NCBI GenBank assembly: GCA_040757175.1
Contig: JBFLXM010000010.1
Span: 3,390 to 67,389, forward strand
Direction: 5' to 3'
Source of the DNA: Thermodesulfobacteriota bacterium
GTDB lineage: Bacteria; Desulfobacterota; Desulfobaccia; Desulfobaccales; 0-14-0-80-60-11
Length of the DNA: 64,000 nucleotides
The notes beneath the pieces are model-generated. The model searched no databases and was not told the origin of the DNA. It worked only from the letters and a program-made list of their open reading frames with translations. A program made the position numbers and the translations under genes. Numbering within the stretch: the stretch's first letter is position 1; the number at the start of each line of letters is the position of its first letter. This document shows positions 6,407 to 15,457 of the stretch, piece by piece.

Positions 6407-6856
6407 GCCTTCTTCTCCTCAGCGCGTCCCTGGGCTTCAGGGCCGAAGCTATTAACAGGTTATTATATAACCCCGGCGCGGTTAAGAATAAAGGTAATTT
6501 TCGGGCCAGGGAGGGGCCTGGGCTTTGCCGCCAGGTGATTTGCTTAAAATATCTTAACAAGTTGCCTGGCCTTTTCTCCCTCCCCCTTGAGGGGGGAGGA
6601 GGAGTTCAAGAGGTCGATATTTTGTAACTTATGCCCGGAAGACAACACTGGATCACGGCCCCGGGAGCCAGCCTCAGGGCCCTACGTGCCTCACCCGCGG
6701 AACCGGGCGGAGAAAATGCGGGTGGTGGGGAGAATGCTTATTGAAAACGGTAAATAATTGTGAAATTATGGCCTCGAAGTGGGGACCTTGCAGTTTTTTT
6801 CGGGTTATGGTGGCAAATCTCGCCATTATCTATTATATTAATTCTAGGGTTAGCAA

Positions 6857-7693
6857 ATGGTGGAGAAATCACAAGATATTCCCGATAGTTCCCGCTTGCG
6901 GGAGACGGCCCGGCAGGTCCGTCTCGATATTGTGGAAATGCTGCACCGGGCCGGCTCCGGACACACGGGAGGATCGCTCTCGGCCACCGATATCTTGGTG
7001 GCCTTGTTTTTCGGGCAGATGCGCCATAACCCCCAGGATCCCTGCTGGTTCCAGCGGGACCGCTTCGTTCTCTCCAAGGGCCATGCCGCGCCGGCCCTGT
7101 ACGCGGTGCTCTCCCGGCTGGGCTATTTCCCCCGGGAAGAACTGCTCACCCTGCGCCAGTTCGGCAGTTCCTTGCAGGGCCATCCGGATTCCGCCTGCAC
7201 TCCGGGAGTGGAGGTCCCCACCGGCTCCCTGGGCCAGGGCCTGTCCATCGCCAACGGCATGGCCCTGGCGGCCCGCCTCAACGGCAACGGCGCCCGGGTC
7301 TACGTCTTGTTGGGGGACGGCGAAGTCCAGGAGGGGCAAATTTGGGAAGCGGCCATGTCCGCGGCCCATTTCCACCTGGACAATCTCACGGCCATCCTGG
7401 ACCGGAACCGCCTGCAGATTGACGGCCGTACCGCAGAGGTAATGAGCCTCGAACCCCTGGCCCCCAAGTGGGAGGCCTTCGGCTGGCATACCGTGGAGGT
7501 GGATGGGCATAGTTTCCCGGAGCTCCTGGGCGCCTTGCAAGAGGCGGAGCAGGTCAAAGACCGCCCCACCATGATCATCGCCCATACGGTCAAGGGCAAG
7601 GGGGTGTCCATTTTTGAAAATCAGGTAAAATACCACGGGGTGGCCCCCAATAAAGAAGAGTATGCGCAGGCATTGAAGGAGTTGCAAGCTTAG
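6857..7693 (+). CDS. Transketolase N-terminal (TPP-binding) subunit
   Basis: [34 protein letters not shown]. Confidence 0.95.
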
Positions 7694-7696
7694 ATA

Positions 7697-7722
7697 CAGT
7701 TTTTAGTTTTTAGTTTTTAGTT
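7697..7722. repeat. Heptamer tract (AGTTTTT)n between the transketolase halves
   Basis: cagtttttagtttttagtttttagtt beginning 4 nt after the stop. Confidence 0.8.
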
Positions 7723-7743
7723 AAAAGGTTTTTGAGGAGTAAC

Positions 7744-8691
7744 GTGTCCGCCAAAGAAAGCACCCGGGTCGAATACGGCAAGGCCCTGTTAAAACTGGGA
7801 GAAGAAAACCCGGATATTGTGGCCCTGGACGCGGACCTGTCCGGGTCCACGCAGACGAAGCATTTTGCCAAGGCCTTCCCCCAGCGCTTTTTTAACATGG
7901 GCGTGGCCGAGCAGGATCTGCTGGGTACGGCCGCGGGGCTGGCCCTGGGGGGGAAAATCCCCTTTGCCAGCACCTTTGCCATGTTTGCCACCGGCCGGGC
8001 CTGGGAGCAAATCCGCCAGTCCATTGCCTACGCCAAGCTCAACGTCAAGATCGTGGCCAGCCACGGGGGCATCAGCGTGGGGGAAGACGGCGGTTCCCAC
8101 CAGGCGGTGGAGGACCTGGCCCTGATGCGCGTCCTCCCCAATATGGTGGTCCTGGTGCCCGCGGATGGTCCGGAAACCCGGGCCATGGCCCGCTGGGCCG
8201 CGAATTATCAGGGACCGGTATACATGCGCACCGGGCGCATGCCCTTCCCGGTGATTTTTGCAGACGACCACCGCTTTGAGCTGGGGCGGGGCCAAATCTT
8301 ACGGGAAGGAGAGGACGTCACCCTGGCGGGTATCGGCCTGTTAACCCACCATTGCCTGGAGGCCGCGGACCTCCTGGCCCGGGAAGGGGTCTCGGCCCGG
8401 GTCCTCAACCTCTCCTGCCTGAAACCCCTGGATTGGCAACTGGTGGTGGACTCCGCCCGGCGCACCGGGGCTTTGGTCACCGCCGAAGAGCATCTGGCCA
8501 CCGGAGGTTTGGGCAGCGCGGTGAGCGAAGTGCTGGCCGAGCACTATCCGGTGCCCCTCCAACGCATCGGCCTCCGGGACACCTTCGGCACTTCCGGCAA
8601 GGCGGAGATTCTCCTGAAGCATTACGGGCTAATGCCCGATGATATTAGAAAGGCAGCTTTAAAGGTATTGCCGCGCAAGAACAGCCGCTGA
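7744..8691 (+). CDS. Transketolase C-terminal subunit
   Basis: GTG start after GAGGAG; DADLSGST, GVAEQ, EDGGSHQ, EEH...GGLGS. Confidence 0.95.
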   Translation: MSAKESTRVEYGKALLKLGEENPDIVALDADLSGSTQTKHFAKAFPQRFFNMGVAEQDLLGTAAGLALGGKIPFASTFAMFATGRAWEQIRQSIAYAKLNVKIVASHGGISVGEDGGSHQAVEDLALMRVLPNMVVLVPADGPETRAMARWAANYQGPVYMRTGRMPFPVIFADDHRFELGRGQILREGEDVTLAGIGLLTHHCLEAADLLAREGVSARVLNLSCLKPLDWQLVVDSARRTGALVTAEEHLATGGLGSAVSEVLAEHYPVPLQRIGLRDTFGTSGKAEILLKHYGLMPDDIRKAALKVLPRKNSR

Positions 8692-8772
8692 ACAATCTTA
8701 GGCGGGCGGGTGGATGCCGGTCATTCACCAGAACCGTGTTTCCCCGGCCTGCATTTCTAGAAGGGGCAGTAG

Positions 8773-10030
8773 AGTGAAATCTTTTGGCGCCAAAACCTTC
8801 CAAACCAGCCCCGGTTGGTTCTCTTACCAGATTTTTTCCGTCTTTTTGGCCCTTTTCCTGGTTGCTTCCTGGACCGGACTGGTGGCTGCCGCGCCTGCCC
8901 AGGACTATGAATCCCTGCGGCTGATCACGGAAGCCATGCATGAAATCTCCCAAAAATACGTCTGGAAAAAGGGGGAAGAAGAGATCATCTATGGGTCCCT
9001 CCGGGGTTTGATGAATTCCCTGGACCCCGATTCTTCTTTTCTCACCCCCAAGGAATATCAACAGGTTTTAAGCGGACATAAGGACCAGTTAGCGGAAGCC
9101 GGGGTGGATTTGGTCTACAAAGACACCCTCCTCACCATTGTCGCGGCCCTGGAGGGGGGGCCGGCCTGGCGGGCCGGGTTACGGCCGGGAGATCATATTC
9201 TCAAGATCAATGGGCATCTGGTGCGCAATCTCACCACCCAGGAAGCCAATCGCCGCTTCCAGGGAAAGGCGGGGACCACCCTCGACCTCCAGGTTTTGCG
9301 CAACGGCCTGATCAAACCCCTGGAGCTAAAGGTGACCCTGGAGCCCCTGGCCCCAGGCGGGGTGACCCATAAAATCCTGAAGGACTCCTACGCTTATATC
9401 CGTATGCCTGCTTTCACCCCGGAGACCCTGGCGGAGTTGGCCGCGACCTTAAAGCAACTGCAGCGGCAGCAGCCGCCCCTGAGAGGCTATATTCTCGATC
9501 TGCGCAATAATGCCCGGGGCAGTATAGACCTGGCAGTGCGCGGGGCTTCCCTGTTCATCGGGGATAAAGAGGTCCTCACCGCCCGGGGACGCCCACCGGA
9601 GCCGAGCCAGGTTTTTCAAGGCCGGGCCAAATCTGAAATCTTTAAACCCGGCCAGCCTCTAGTGGTGCTGGTGGACGGGGGCACGGCCCGGGCCTCGGAA
9701 GCTCTGGCCGGGGCCCTCCGGGACCAGTATCGCGCAGTGCTTCTGGGAAGCAAAACCGTGGGTCTGTGCGGACTCACCAAGACCCTGCCCCTCAAGGACG
9801 GCTCGGCCTTGGTGATGACCGTGGCCCAATGTTATACTCCTAACGGCCAGAAGATCCACGGCAAAGGCCTGGAGCCGGAGGTCGCCGGTAAGACCCCGGC
9901 GGTTACCACCCCCGGGGTCACCACTCCGCCGAAGCTTTCTCCGGAGCAAGACCCCTGGGTGACCCAGGCCTTGGAGATCTTGAAGACCGGCAAGCCACGG
10001 AAGGTGGCGGAAAAGGCGGAAAAACCATGA
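8773..10030 (+). CDS. S41A C-terminal processing protease paralog, predicted catalytically inactive
   Basis: PDZ + S41 layout (SLDPDSSFL, ILDLRNN), but TARASE and TVGLCG replace SASASE and FGKG; start uncertain (8714 or 8773). Confidence 0.8.
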
Positions 10031-10059
10031 TTTTTTCCCATAGCCGGTGGAGAAAGCCA

Positions 10060-11406
10060 ATGACCCTAAGAAAAATAATGGGGGCCGCCCTCAACCTGTT
10101 ACTGACTCTGGTCCTTTGCTGGGGCCTGTCCCTGGCGGTTTCGGCCCCGGCAAACGCCCGCAGCCGGAACGCGTCCTTACAAATGGCGTCTTTGCCGGAG
10201 GTGATCTCCCCGGCCACGGATGCCAAACTCAAGGTCCTGGCCCAGGCCCTGGCCCTGGTGGAAGAGCAATATGTGGAGCCCAAGACCCCCAAGGATTTAA
10301 TCTATGGGGCTATCCAGGGCGCGGTGAGCACTCTGGATTCCCATTCCTCCTTTATGACCCCCGAAGAATACCGGGAATTGCAGATCGAGACCAAGGGTAA
10401 GTTTAGCGGCATCGGTATCGAAATCACCCTGAAGGACCGGACCCTGACGGTGGTCTCTCCCATTGAAGGCACTCCTGCCTACCGGGCGGGCCTCCAGGCG
10501 GGGGATCAGATCGTCAAGATCAACGGCGCGGCCACCAAAAACATGTCCCTCACCGAAGCGGTGAAATCGATCCGGGGCCCCAAGGGCAGCAAAGTGACCC
10601 TGACCATTAACCGGCAAGGTTTCCCCCAGCCCAAGGATTTTGCCATCGTCCGGGAAATCATTCCCATCCGCAGCGTCAAGGCCCGGGTGGTGGATGGAGG
10701 CATCGGTTATATCCGTTTGGCCAATTTCCAGGACCAGACCGACACCGACTTGCAGGTCTACCTCAAGAAGATGCAACAGCGCCTCACTCCCTTTAAAGGC
10801 CTGGTCCTGGACCTGCGCAATGACCCGGGGGGCCTGCTGGAACAGGCAGTGCGGGTGGCGGATGAATTCCTCAACTCCGGGTTGATCGTCTATACGGAAG
10901 GCCGCACCCCCAACCAGAGTATGCGTTTTTACGCCCACCCCGGGGAAAAACTGGGGGTTCCCATTCCCATGGTGGTCCTGATCAACGAGGGCAGCGCCTC
11001 TGCCTCGGAAATCGTGGCCGGCGCGCTCAAGGACCAAAAGCGGGCGATGATCGTCGGCACCAAAAGCTTCGGCAAGGGTTCGGTGCAGACCATCATCCCC
11101 CTGGAAGACGGCTCAGCCCTGCGCCTGACCACTGCCCTCTATTACACTCCCAACGGCATCACCATCCAGGACAAGGGCATTATCCCGGATGAGGTGGTCA
11201 AGGAGAAGGAAATCCCTGCGGGCAAGAGCCTCCAGAAAGTGCGGGAGGAATCTCTTAGCAAACACATGCGCAAAGAGGGACTCACGGATAAACCCTGGAC
11301 CCAGCCCATCACCGGCGAGGAACTGGATCAGGACCCTCAGCTAAAGCGGGCCGTGGAGATGATCCGCAATTGGCCTCCTAAAAAGTTGGCGCAGCAGACG
11401 AAGTAA
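10060..11406 (+). CDS. ctpA: Carboxy-terminal processing protease, S41A
   Basis: GIGIEI PDZ loop, DLRNDPGG, SASASE, FGKGSVQ; start may be 10027 (ATGA overlap with the upstream gene). Confidence 0.93.
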   Translation: MTLRKIMGAALNLLLTLVLCWGLSLAVSAPANARSRNASLQMASLPEVISPATDAKLKVLAQALALVEEQYVEPKTPKDLIYGAIQGAVSTLDSHSSFMTPEEYRELQIETKGKFSGIGIEITLKDRTLTVVSPIEGTPAYRAGLQAGDQIVKINGAATKNMSLTEAVKSIRGPKGSKVTLTINRQGFPQPKDFAIVREIIPIRSVKARVVDGGIGYIRLANFQDQTDTDLQVYLKKMQQRLTPFKGLVLDLRNDPGGLLEQAVRVADEFLNSGLIVYTEGRTPNQSMRFYAHPGEKLGVPIPMVVLINEGSASASEIVAGALKDQKRAMIVGTKSFGKGSVQTIIPLEDGSALRLTTALYYTPNGITIQDKGIIPDEVVKEKEIPAGKSLQKVREESLSKHMRKEGLTDKPWTQPITGEELDQDPQLKRAVEMIRNWPPKKLAQQTK

Positions 11407-11408
11407 AG

Positions 11409-11675
11409 ACGGTTTTCGGTTTTCTGTTTTCTGTTTTCTGCAAAACCGAATCAGAGCTTTTCGACAATTTAAGGGGGAATGATTATATCATTCCCCCTCC
11501 TCATAAGGGGGGATCAGGGCGATATTTCTTTAATTTTTCACCCTCTCCGCCCCCTTCCCTAGTAAGTCTTTTTAAATCATTAAATTGAAAAGTCTTTAAG
11601 CCTTTATTCAACCTCCGGAATTATAGTGCCCATGTCTCTTAACAGAAAACAGAAAACAGAAAACAGAAAACCGTC
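11409..11675. repeat. Inverted pair of heptamer tracts (GTTTTCT)n / (AGAAAAC)n bracketing the ctpA-der spacer
   Basis: 11409-11440 acggttttcggttttctgttttctgttttctg; 11641-11675 aacagaaaacagaaaacagaaaacagaaaaccgtc. Confidence 0.85.
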
Positions 11676-12999
11676 AGTACCGCAGGGCTTGGTGGCCATT
11701 ATCGGCCGGGCCAACGTAGGGAAATCCACCCTCTTTAACCGCCTGACCCGCTCCTCCCGGGCCCTGGTGGCGGATTTTCCCGGGGTCACCCGGGACCGCC
11801 TTTATGGACAGGTGGATGGGGATGACCATTCCTTCCTGCTGGTGGACACCGGCGGCCTGGTGGGGGGCGAGGAGGAGTTGGGGGAACTGGTGCGCCGCCA
11901 GGCCGCGGCCGCGGTGGCCGAAGCCGACGTCCTCCTCCTGGTGATGGACGGCAAAGAGGGCCCCCAGCCGGGGGACGGCGAGGTCATCGACTATCTGCGG
12001 CGCACCGGCAAGCCCTTTCTGCTGGTGATCAACAAGATGGACCATCCGGGCCGGGAGGAGCGGCTGCCGGAATTCTACCGCTTCGGAGTCGAGCCCCTTT
12101 TCCCCGTGGCAGCCGTCCACGGCCTGGGCCTGAACGCCCTGCTGGCGGCCCTGGTCCAAGAACTGCCCCGGCCCGAGGAAGCCGCGGCCCTGGCCGCGCC
12201 GGGCATCCGGGTGGCCATCCTGGGCCGGCCCAACGTGGGCAAATCCTCCCTGGTCAACCGCTTCCTGGGAGAAGAGCGCCTCCTGGTGAGCCCCCGGCCG
12301 GGCACCACCCGGGACGTGGTGGACACGCCCTTAACCTGGCAGGATCAAGATTATGTCCTGGTGGATACCGCGGGGCTGCGCCGTCCCAGTCAGGTGGCGG
12401 CCGGCCTGGAAAGGCAAATGGTGCTCAAGGCCATCAAGTCCCTGGCCCGGGCGGAAGTGGCGCTGCTGCTCCTGGACGCCCAGGAAGGTCTGACCGCCCA
12501 GGACCTGCGCATCGCCGGGCTCATCCAAGACCAGGGCAAGGGTTGCCTCATCCTGGTGAATAAGTGGGACCTGGTAAAACAAGACCCCCAACAGGCCCAA
12601 AAGCTCCTGGACCAAGTGGCCGCGGGATTGGAGGTCATGGCTTATGTGCCGGTGCTGCCGGTCTCCGTCAAGACCGGCTATCATGTCAACAAAATTTTTC
12701 CTTTGCTAAACGACATCTACGCCCAAAGCCGGCGCCGGGTGGCCACTCGGGAACTCAACCTGATCCTCAAAGAGATCACCGACCGGGTGCCCCCGTCCCG
12801 CTACCGGAACCGGCCGGTGAAATTCCTTTATCTGACCCAGGCGGAAATCCAGCCTCCCACCTTTATCGCCTTTGTCAATCAACCCGCAGGGGTCAAGGAC
12901 TCCTACCGCCGCTACTTGGTGAAGCAATTGCGGGAGAGGCTGAACCTCCCCCACGCGCCGGTGCGGCTCTACCTGAAAGGCAGAAAACGCCGGGATTAA
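11632..12999 (+). CDS. der: Ribosome biogenesis GTPase Der
   Basis: Two GTPase domains (GRANVGKS/DTGG/NKMD; GRPNVGKS/DTAG/NKWD) plus KH-like tail PPTF. Confidence 0.96.
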   Translation: MSLNRKQKTENRKPSVPQGLVAIIGRANVGKSTLFNRLTRSSRALVADFPGVTRDRLYGQVDGDDHSFLLVDTGGLVGGEEELGELVRRQAAAAVAEADVLLLVMDGKEGPQPGDGEVIDYLRRTGKPFLLVINKMDHPGREERLPEFYRFGVEPLFPVAAVHGLGLNALLAALVQELPRPEEAAALAAPGIRVAILGRPNVGKSSLVNRFLGEERLLVSPRPGTTRDVVDTPLTWQDQDYVLVDTAGLRRPSQVAAGLERQMVLKAIKSLARAEVALLLLDAQEGLTAQDLRIAGLIQDQGKGCLILVNKWDLVKQDPQQAQKLLDQVAAGLEVMAYVPVLPVSVKTGYHVNKIFPLLNDIYAQSRRRVATRELNLILKEITDRVPPSRYRNRPVKFLYLTQAEIQPPTFIAFVNQPAGVKDSYRRYLVKQLRERLNLPHAPVRLYLKGRKRRD

Positions 13000-13001
13000 T
13001 A

Positions 13002-13032
13002 CCGTTTTCGGTTTTCAGTTTTCGGTTTTCGG
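13002..13032. repeat. Heptamer tract just after the der stop
   Basis: ccgttttcggttttcagttttcggttttcgg. Confidence 0.85.
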
Positions 13033-13155
13033 CAAAAAGGAAGCGGAGCAATTGTGGCGATGCAAGTGGGGAATTTTAGAGAATAGAAGTCCCTTCCCCC
13101 GCCTTTGCCAGGTCCGGGGATTCGGGGGAAATAACCGCAGTTTTGCCGGGGAGTT

Positions 13156-13407
13156 TTAAGCTTTTACCAGTCGCAGTGTGGGGCGCCCGCCCTGTTGGCG
13201 CTCCGTCTTGAGGGTATTCCCTTTTTTCAGGGCGTTTTTGACCCGGACCCCGTTGATCAGGAAGTAGGCGATCACCGCCCGTTCCCAGGCGGGAGAGACT
13301 TCCAATTGCTCCATGCGGGTTTTGAAATAATTGAGAAGTTCGTTCAGGTCCGGTTCGTCGTAGGCCAGCACCCGGTCAGCTAAGCGTTCAATGGCTTCAG
13401 CGATCAT
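13156..13407 (-). CDS. Small hypothetical protein
   Basis: Helical ~83-aa ORF (AYDEPDL...WERAVIAYFLINGVRVKN); start 13407 or 13455. Confidence 0.65.
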   Translation of the reverse strand: MIAEAIERLADRVLAYDEPDLNELLNYFKTRMEQLEVSPAWERAVIAYFLINGVRVKNALKKGNTLKTERQQGGRPTLRLVKA

Positions 13408-14275: not shown

Positions 14276-15457
14276 TCAGTCACCCAGTAACAGCAATTCC
14301 ATGGGAGCAAGATTTGCCACCCCTGTATAGAGTTCGGCGCTGTCCAGATAGGATGGATAATTGTAGCCTCCGACCATCAGCACCTGGCCGTTAGCCAGCC
14401 GGGTGGCCGTATGTTCTTCCCGGGCTATGCCAAGCTCCCCTGTCTGGCTCCAGGTCCCTGTGGCTGGGTTGAAAAGCTCGGAGCTCTTTAGTGAGCCGCC
14501 AGCTACAAAGTTATAACCCCCGGCCAACAGGATATGACCGTTGGTGAGTAAGGTAGCCGTATGATAATCTCTGCCGGTAATAAGAGAACCGGTGCTGCTC
14601 CAAGTCCCCGAGGTCTGATCGTAGAGCTCGGCGCTGTTCGAGCTGCCCGCGGAGTTATACCCCCCGGCCGCCAGGACCTGGCCGGAGGTAAGCCGGAGGG
14701 CCGTATGGCCCATTCGGGCGGTGGCGAGTTCCCCTGTCGCGCTCCAAACCCCCGTGACCGGATTGAAAAGCTCGGCGCTCTTCAGGTAGCCGCTGGCCCC
14801 AAAGCCCCCGGCCACCAATACCTGGAGGCCCATCCAGGTGGCCGTATGCAAAGTACGGGATATAGTGAGCTCGCCGGTCCCGCTCCAGGTCCCGGTGGCT
14901 GGATTGTAGATCTCCGCGCTTTTCAGAGTGGCGCTGCCCGCTCCTGTCCCTCCAACCACCAACACCATGCCGTTCCGCATCAAGGTGGCGGTGTGATCCA
15001 TGCGGGCCGCGATGAGGTCCCCGGTGGCCGACCAGTTTCCCGTGGCCGGATTGTAAAGCTCGGCGCCGGCCTGTTCCCCTCCCCCGGTAGGCCAATTGGA
15101 ACCCCCGGCCACCAGCACCTGGCCGTTGGGCAGCAAGGTGGCGGTATGCCCTCTGCGGATCGTGCCCATGGGGTCGGTATTGCTCCAGGTCCCCGTGGCC
15201 GGATCGTAGAGCTCGGCGCTTTTCAGGACCCCGCCCGTCCCGATGCCCCCGGTCACCAGCACCTGGCCGTTCAGCAGCCGGGCGGCCGTGTGATAGTAGC
15301 GGGCCGCGGCCAGGGAGCCGGTGGCGCGCCAACTAGCGCTTTCCCCCGGGGTGGGGCGGATTATAAGAAGCGACAGGAGAAGGAATAGCAGAATGATTGC
15401 GGCCCGGTAAAGAATCCGGGGGGCGGGTGAGAGGCTGCAAATCATGGGCATGGTCAT
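14276..15457 (-). CDS. Secreted 7-blade Kelch-repeat beta-propeller protein
   Basis: Seven R..HTA.LL.NGQVLVAGG...AELYNP.TG.W repeats; signal peptide; tail APMELLLLGD. Confidence 0.9.
   Translation of the reverse strand: MTMPMICSLSPAPRILYRAAIILLFLLLSLLIIRPTPGESASWRATGSLAAARYYHTAARLLNGQVLVTGGIGTGGVLKSAELYDPATGTWSNTDPMGTIRRGHTATLLPNGQVLVAGGSNWPTGGGEQAGAELYNPATGNWSATGDLIAARMDHTATLMRNGMVLVVGGTGAGSATLKSAEIYNPATGTWSGTGELTISRTLHTATWMGLQVLVAGGFGASGYLKSAELFNPVTGVWSATGELATARMGHTALRLTSGQVLAAGGYNSAGSSNSAELYDQTSGTWSSTGSLITGRDYHTATLLTNGHILLAGGYNFVAGGSLKSSELFNPATGTWSQTGELGIAREEHTATRLANGQVLMVGGYNYPSYLDSAELYTGVANLAPMELLLLGD

Follow-up and report, generated by a model that had tools for sequence, protein, structure and literature searches.

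Why would a bacterium keep, directly in front of an intact carboxyl-terminal processing protease, a second full-length copy from which all catalytic residues are gone? The question is raised by two genes in a 64,000-nucleotide stretch of a Thermodesulfobacteriota genome (assembly GCA_040757175.1, contig JBFLXM010000010.1, positions 3,390 to 67,389; the window, hereafter, is this whole stretch), which we call gene A (8714–10030) and gene B (10027–11406); all coordinates are those of the window and lie on its + strand unless stated otherwise. Proteases of the CtpA and Prc type regulate cell-wall hydrolases and proteins of the envelope, and according to two recent, independent structural studies only half of the active sites of a CtpA hexamer are in use at any one time. 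Here we describe A as a putatively exported pseudoprotease with PDZ and S41 folds that is maintained across a class of sulfate-reducing bacteria, and we propose, with a confidence only a little above even, that it serves as a dedicated non-catalytic, resting partner protomer of B, an intact CtpA-type carboxyl-terminal processing protease.

Gene A encodes 438 amino acids from the ATG at 8714 (public gene calls start it at a GTG, 8774, giving the 418 aa of P0003), and gene B encodes 459. The open reading frames (ORFs) overlap at ATGA (10027–10030), where the start of B lies on the stop of A. This overlap is present in 6/6 same-genus loci examined, with a short gap between the genes in other genera; since a second in-frame ATG of B is absent in three of those six, the overlapping ATG is the likelier start of B. 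Both proteins match Pfam Peptidase_S41 (PF03572; 128.1 bits for A and 186 for B, cut-off 24) and the Pfam PDZ models (for A, PDZ_6 at 45.9, PDZ_2 at 39.5 and PDZ at 29.9 bits, each above its cut-off). The NCBIfam model TIGR00225 'prc' (cut-off 218.6 bits) scores B above its threshold, at 339.6, and A below it, at 201.8. The two proteins are 34% identical over 401 columns and are the only S41 genes found in the source genome. P. aeruginosa CtpA chains are the closest PDB sequence matches of both (B against 7rpq, E 2.7e-104). A hydrophobic stretch at each N-terminus (residues 43–57 in A and 24–38 in B, mean Kyte-Doolittle 2.3–2.4) is consistent with export of the two proteins; no canonical lipobox was seen by eye in the N-terminus of A, and no tetratricopeptide repeat (TPR) family was among its Pfam and NCBIfam matches. 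ORFs, Pfam matches and hydrophobic N-termini thus agree with the initial annotation of the locus as two tandem exported PDZ-S41 genes overlapping at ATGA.

The catalytic positions were identified by alignment to P. aeruginosa CtpA, whose deposited wild-type and S302A sequences (7rpq and 7rqh, respectively) differ at a single aligned position, which sets the nucleophile. B keeps the catalytic Ser325 (10999–11001), Lys350 25 residues further on and Gln354 (Lys350 to Gln354, 11074–11088), as well as His106 (10342–10344; H46 in mature numbering), the equivalent of P. aeruginosa His-84. At the positions of S302, K327, Q331 and H84, A carries Arg326 (CGG, 9689–9691), Leu351 and Thr355 (Leu351 to Thr355, in GLCGLT, 9764–9778, replacing the general-base Lys and the triad Gln) and Asp106 (9029–9031). 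In P. aeruginosa CtpA, S302A and K327A are reported to leave no activity in vivo, and H84A and Q331A to leave a weakened one (PMC11021448). Judged from its residues, A is without the Ser-Lys(-Gln/His) machinery and cannot act as an S41 serine protease. The serine and lysine of B, and the arginine and leucine of A in their place, had been recognized when the locus was first annotated, and the alignment confirms them. So had two motif changes in A, NARG (9509–9520) for the DPGG of B, in the PGG motif that we take to be the oxyanion-hole region of S41 proteases, and EAGV (9095–9106) for the GIGI of the PDZ loop. Both changes are real, but to read the second as the loss of the PDZ carboxylate loop went too far: the general pattern of that loop is X-hydrophobic-G-hydrophobic, which E-A-G-V fits, so the PDZ domain of A need not be dead.

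The same replacements are found throughout the relatives of the window. A/B pairs were taken from a search of 41 related genomes. The A orthologues come from a single class (record titles Desulfobaccales or Desulfobacca), in which they represent two families. The A-type ORF is open in 36/36 loci, and Ser and Lys are both absent from all 36 A orthologues: the Ser position is occupied by R in 33, Q in 2 and K in 1, and the Lys position by L in 24, D in 8, N in 3 and E in 1. S/K/Q, GIGI and PGG are retained throughout the 36 B-type sequences, of which 34 belong to the class and 2 to other families of the phylum. In the class as a whole, an A-type match (at least 45% identity) was found in 78 of 83 genomes from the two families; the five genomes without one are 70–94% complete. 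At E≤1e-75, which tells A-type matches apart from B-type ones, an evenly sampled set of 151 genomes of the phylum gave matches in 5 genomes of the window's family and in 0 of the 146 others. Of 1.84 billion cluster representatives, the 150 best matches include only P0123 plus fragments as A-like sequences, and S/K/Q is kept in 137 of the 150. A separate search at E≤1e-20 gave 1659 hits, and metagenomic orthologues number in the hundreds. Named records returned 80 loci, 19 of them with A-type genes (47–76% identity), under the titles Desulfobaccales, Desulfobacca, uncultured Desulfobacterales, and (uncultured) delta proteobacterium or Deltaproteobacteria bacterium. The second family (f2, L026–L038) has features of its own: in the alignment, the A-type linker ahead of the C-terminal helix has about 11 more residues and is conserved in part (e.g. 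L-K-L-E-K-P-K), QDPL[IV] replaces DPWV as the C-terminal motif, and many members have Arg plus Asp/Glu/Asn at the old Ser and Lys positions, possibly forming a charge pair.

Ratios of nonsynonymous to synonymous substitution rates (dN/dS) were calculated for the mature regions by the Nei-Gojobori method (NG86, custom script), leaving out A row L033, for which back-translation was not exact. In 15 same-genus pairs the median was 0.216 for A (0.149–0.255) and 0.164 for B (0.089–0.218); the closest of these pairs gave 0.149 and 0.126, and six more close pairs from other genera gave 0.13–0.23 and 0.07–0.12, respectively. With dN/dS near that of B, A is under purifying selection only slightly weaker than that acting on the active enzyme. 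Lost catalytic residues, an ORF intact across the clade and dN/dS well below 1 characterize A as a selection-retained pseudoenzyme, and by these substitution rates selection has kept it full-length. Alternatively, A could be a neutrally decaying pseudogene. The loss of all catalytic residues would suit such a gene, as would its faster evolution (mean column identity of 59%, against 75% for B), but the idea is contradicted by intact ORFs at 36/36 loci, a dN/dS of 0.15–0.26 and class-wide retention, and we give it practically no credence. The initial annotation had called A a full-length, uninterrupted and maintained pseudoprotease, a view it would have given up had orthologues retained Ser/Lys or decayed neutrally; conservation and dN/dS revealed neither.

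A protein that has lost one set of catalytic residues might have acquired another. For comparison of the two paralogues, A and B sequences of 33 genomes were aligned in the same order, leaving out L008, L009 and L029, where B is partial or missing on the contig; His106 of B is invariant in 33/33 rows. In fifteen columns A and B are each conserved to at least 90% but differ in the residue, and several of these columns flank the old active site (D321/N, T324/S, R326/S, A328/S, A267/P and C373/Y, with the residue of A first). A could then be an enzyme that works with non-canonical residues, such as the nearly invariant Cys373, which is found in 97% of the 33 A rows and is aligned with a Tyr of B, or Cys352, which lies in the GLCG motif conserved in family f1. 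However, Cys352 is absent from 5/36 orthologues (L026–L029 and L036), L036 lacks both cysteines, every invariant Ser/Thr of A is also found in B, and the PGG motif is altered in A. We therefore consider an enzymatic A very improbable.

The phylogeny was built from 60 rows: 27 representatives, 2 outgroup CtpAs, P0123 and, from the 33 A/B pairs, 15 that were picked to be well spread. In this tree the A sequences form one clade and the B sequences another, both with a support of 100 and with matching internal groupings; the A clade has a long stem (0.75) and longer branches than that of B. The quick free tree of these rows gave no clear position of the A clade among active CtpAs. A tree constrained to an A + B clade was 54.8 log-likelihood units above the quick free tree, and A + B as one clade was not rejected by the approximately unbiased (AU) test (p-AU 0.967). 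Tree and test together fit a single duplication before the radiation of the class, followed by vertical co-inheritance; an origin of A by duplication in the class stem lineage is compatible with them, and long-branch effects may influence where A is placed. Separately, three metagenome proteins of 482–636 aa (P0145, P0151 and P0195) form their own S41/PDZ clade, with a support of 99; in place of Ser-Lys-Gln they carry the degenerate triads G-R-Q, S-Q-Q and A-K-Q, so that dead or half-dead relatives of CtpA may have arisen more than once.

What, then, is selection preserving in a protease that cannot cleave? The best-conserved part of A is formed by the N-terminal helices H1–H2 (8891–9049), the dimerisation region of CtpAs, with a mean pairwise identity of 0.62 (14/53 columns invariant) against 0.60 in B (9/52). 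The C-terminal helix of A (EQDPWVTQALEIL..., 9944–9994), by alignment and model the counterpart of the C-terminal dimerisation helix of CtpA, has 0.54, and that of B 0.57. For the other regions the values in A and B are 0.37 and 0.83 for the H3 link, 0.62 and 0.75 for the PDZ, 0.53 and 0.75 for the cap and core, and 0.22 and 0.57 for the linker. In P. aeruginosa CtpA the N-terminal helices are described as making the dimer and the C-terminal helix as joining dimers into the hexamer (PMC8764530; PMC11021448). Set against these roles, the regional identities indicate that A kept its oligomerisation elements and relaxed its substrate-handling parts; as measured by identity, the trans-acting loop, the substrate helix and the protease core are all under weaker constraint. 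H1/H2 and the long C-terminal helix, which are features of hexameric CtpA, are helical in the model of A and conserved there as in B. Another feature, the conserved trans-interacting (motile) loop with its Glu and Leu and the paired core His, is missing from A and kept in B. The loop of B reads R-[DEQ]-E-x-L and is accompanied by a DKPW motif; the linker of A is unconserved and without the loop motif, and in the window's family it is about 20 residues shorter.

The AlphaFold2 (AF2) model of mature A had a mean pLDDT of 83.2 and a pTM of 0.80, and placed helices at mature residues 3–23, 29–44 and 355–366. The structures that it matches best are CtpA chains of H. pylori and P. aeruginosa (TMq 0.77–0.80). 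The model lies nearer to resting CtpB (4c2e and 4c2h, TMq 0.73–0.74) than to active CtpB (4c2c, 4c2f and 4c2g, 0.57), although a predicted conformation is weak evidence of state. When A and B were folded together, the predicted complex reached a median ipSAE of 0.70 (0.72, 0.70 and 0.70 in three runs; 0.01 for the best of 3 controls), a mark that is reached by 58/80 solved complexes and by 2/110 mismatched pairs. Partner pLDDT was at least 81, and contacts agreed by at least 90% between runs. The predicted interface consists of residues 1–50 of both chains and core residues ~292–313, that is, of a CtpA-type N-terminal dimer. The conserved dimerisation regions and this predicted dimer through the N-terminal helices make A a plausible hetero-oligomer partner of B, and they lend indirect support to the initial annotation's view of A as hetero-oligomer partner, adaptor or inhibitor. 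Because the complex passes, and homodimers with the same interface have been solved, A still looks like a competent dimer partner, which is not proof that it prefers B over itself.

The genomic arrangement bears on whether that partner is B at all. A might act independently, as a non-catalytic periplasmic binding protein, e.g. a homo-oligomer that binds peptide tails via its PDZ and the disused tunnel, and the adjacency of the genes would then be a scar of duplication. Its PDZ is indeed fairly conserved (0.62, as above), pairing of A with itself could use its conserved dimerisation regions just as well, and the S41 fold does exist without proteolysis, chains of retinol-binding protein 3 (IRBP) being among the PDB matches of both A and B. 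On the other hand, B directly follows A in 19/19 named Desulfobaccales loci, the A-B order holds in all pairs examined in both families, no case of A apart from B occurred in the genomes examined, contig breaks aside, and the ATGA overlap within the genus suggests co-translation. On balance we consider an A that works without B unlikely.

How might a dead protomer serve an active one? In the P. aeruginosa LbcA3CtpA6 complex, as reported, one protomer of each N-terminal dimer is activated and the 'back' protomer is inactive (PMC11021448). H. pylori CtpA likewise is described with at least one subunit per N-dimer resting, its PDZ shutting the tunnel of the active subunit on one face (PMC12749690). 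Since one protomer per CtpA dimer rests, a duplicate could lose catalysis at little cost and keep its structural role. We suggest that A would be made together with B and exported, and would pair with it via the N-terminal four-helix bundle of CtpA dimers, and possibly also via the C-terminal helix. Just as the resting protomer of a hexameric CtpA dimer helps to wall off the active one, A would be the permanent non-catalytic protomer of an asymmetric pair, shaping or gating the activity of B, and its PDZ, which is still conserved, may serve to hold substrates or to shut the tunnel on one face. A more far-reaching version, which we put forward only tentatively, is that the half-of-sites asymmetry has become encoded in the genome: A permanently resting and B permanently active in an obligate A-B assembly, with the dead subunit as a gate or a substrate-holding PDZ that may replace the activating role of an LbcA-type protein.

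The same assembly could have the opposite effect. A would then be a restraining subunit, with A-B heterodimers keeping B latent or less active until a signal or an adaptor displaces A. Latency is normal in the family, as P. aeruginosa CtpA alone is described as locked inactive and in need of LbcA (PMC8764530), and a restraining A would draw on the very evidence that supports a resting partner, the regional conservation and the A-B fold. The present data do not separate activation from inhibition, and we regard restraint by A as unlikely.

Several points weigh against A as a resting partner of B. Adjacency of the two genes is the expected remnant of a tandem duplication whether or not their products interact. 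The score of the A-B complex may only echo the likeness of both chains to solved CtpA and CtpB homodimers with the same interface, and, coming from a fold of A with B alone, it does not tell a hetero- from a homodimer. In the P. aeruginosa and H. pylori enzymes the loop that reaches the His of the active protomer comes from a resting neighbour, but here it is B that keeps loop and His, so a strict A3B3 copy of those hexamers fits poorly and contacts between B subunits may persist. Finally, stop codons lie inside the aligned span in 7/78 A-type matches. In the one such match that was inspected (G016, locus L021) the stop lies upstream of the ORF. Truncated A-type spans were seen at G051:C19:37031-37789, with 2 in-frame stops, and at G074:C11:279303-280103, with 3, in genomes that are 90% and 68% complete, respectively; these copies may be broken genes or assembly or sequencing errors. 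At three further loci, on named MAG contigs (L056, L068 and L086), matches are fragmented for every gene of the cluster, transketolase and der among them, which points to assembly frameshifts rather than to decay of A.

The surroundings of the pair gave no functional hint. The conserved gene order is gatC (− strand), a split transketolase, A, B and der, with der after B in 18/19 named loci and tktC before A in 17/19. In the window the transketolase upstream of A is encoded by two genes, for the N-terminal part (6857–7693) and for the C-terminal part (7732–8691), an order kept in most Desulfobaccales loci. Scanning positions 6500–13200 for promoters and terminators returned counts no higher than in shuffled sequence. 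A short run of GTTTTCT-like units lies just past the stop of B (11407–11445), and further downstream a 393-aa ORF (14276–15457, − strand) has a hydrophobic N-terminus and many repeats of the form 'G.VLV.GG ... SAELY.P.TG.W', Kelch-type in appearance.

If A is a resting partner of B, the pair would be a natural experiment in which the roles of a resting protomer (gating, compartment wall, allosteric partner) are genetically separable from catalysis, and a clear bacterial case of a pseudoprotease evolved from a homo-oligomeric protease. Whatever its role, the public labels 'S41 family peptidase' and 'carboxyl-terminal processing protease' overstate the capability of A-type proteins. A full-text search of the literature found no description of a dead CtpA/S41 paralogue or pseudoprotease paired with an active one; PMC12772221, considered as a candidate, deals with WthA/LbcA rather than with a dead carboxyl-terminal processing protease.

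Among known systems, A is closest to the hexameric CtpAs of P. aeruginosa (7RPQ, 8SXE-H) and H. pylori (9JR1, 9KU3, 9KUB), with which it has in common the fold and the order of domains: N-terminal helices, PDZ, cap and core, and C-terminal helix. There, however, a single polypeptide supplies both the resting and the active protomers, which can exchange roles, whereas A, the putative resting partner, is the product of a separate gene, can never be active and is without the trans-acting loop. IRBP (RBP3), which is non-proteolytic, has an S41-related fold like A, but it is made of vertebrate ligand-binding repeats, has no PDZ and is not paired with an active protease. LbcA of P. aeruginosa and NlpI of E. 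coli resemble the putative role of A, being non-catalytic partners of S41 proteases (CtpA and Prc, respectively), and LbcA is reported to bind the N-terminal helices of the CtpA dimer (PMC11021448); both are TPR lipoproteins unrelated to S41, in contrast to A, an S41 paralogue without a TPR match. In the subtilisin family, CspA and CspC of Clostridioides difficile are described as dead protease paralogues kept beside the active CspB, as A is beside B (PMC7200643), but they belong to another protease clan, act in spore germination, and have neither a PDZ nor a hexameric ring. The deoxyhypusine synthase of trypanosomatids offers a reported precedent for a dead paralogue as partner, as its dead paralogue hetero-oligomerises with an impaired active one and raises its activity (PMC3663545); that system is eukaryotic and not a protease, and A is known here from its sequence and from models. 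Dead paralogues as partners of active enzymes are thus already known from the Csp proteins and the trypanosomatid synthase, and within the S41 family such a partner would be new.

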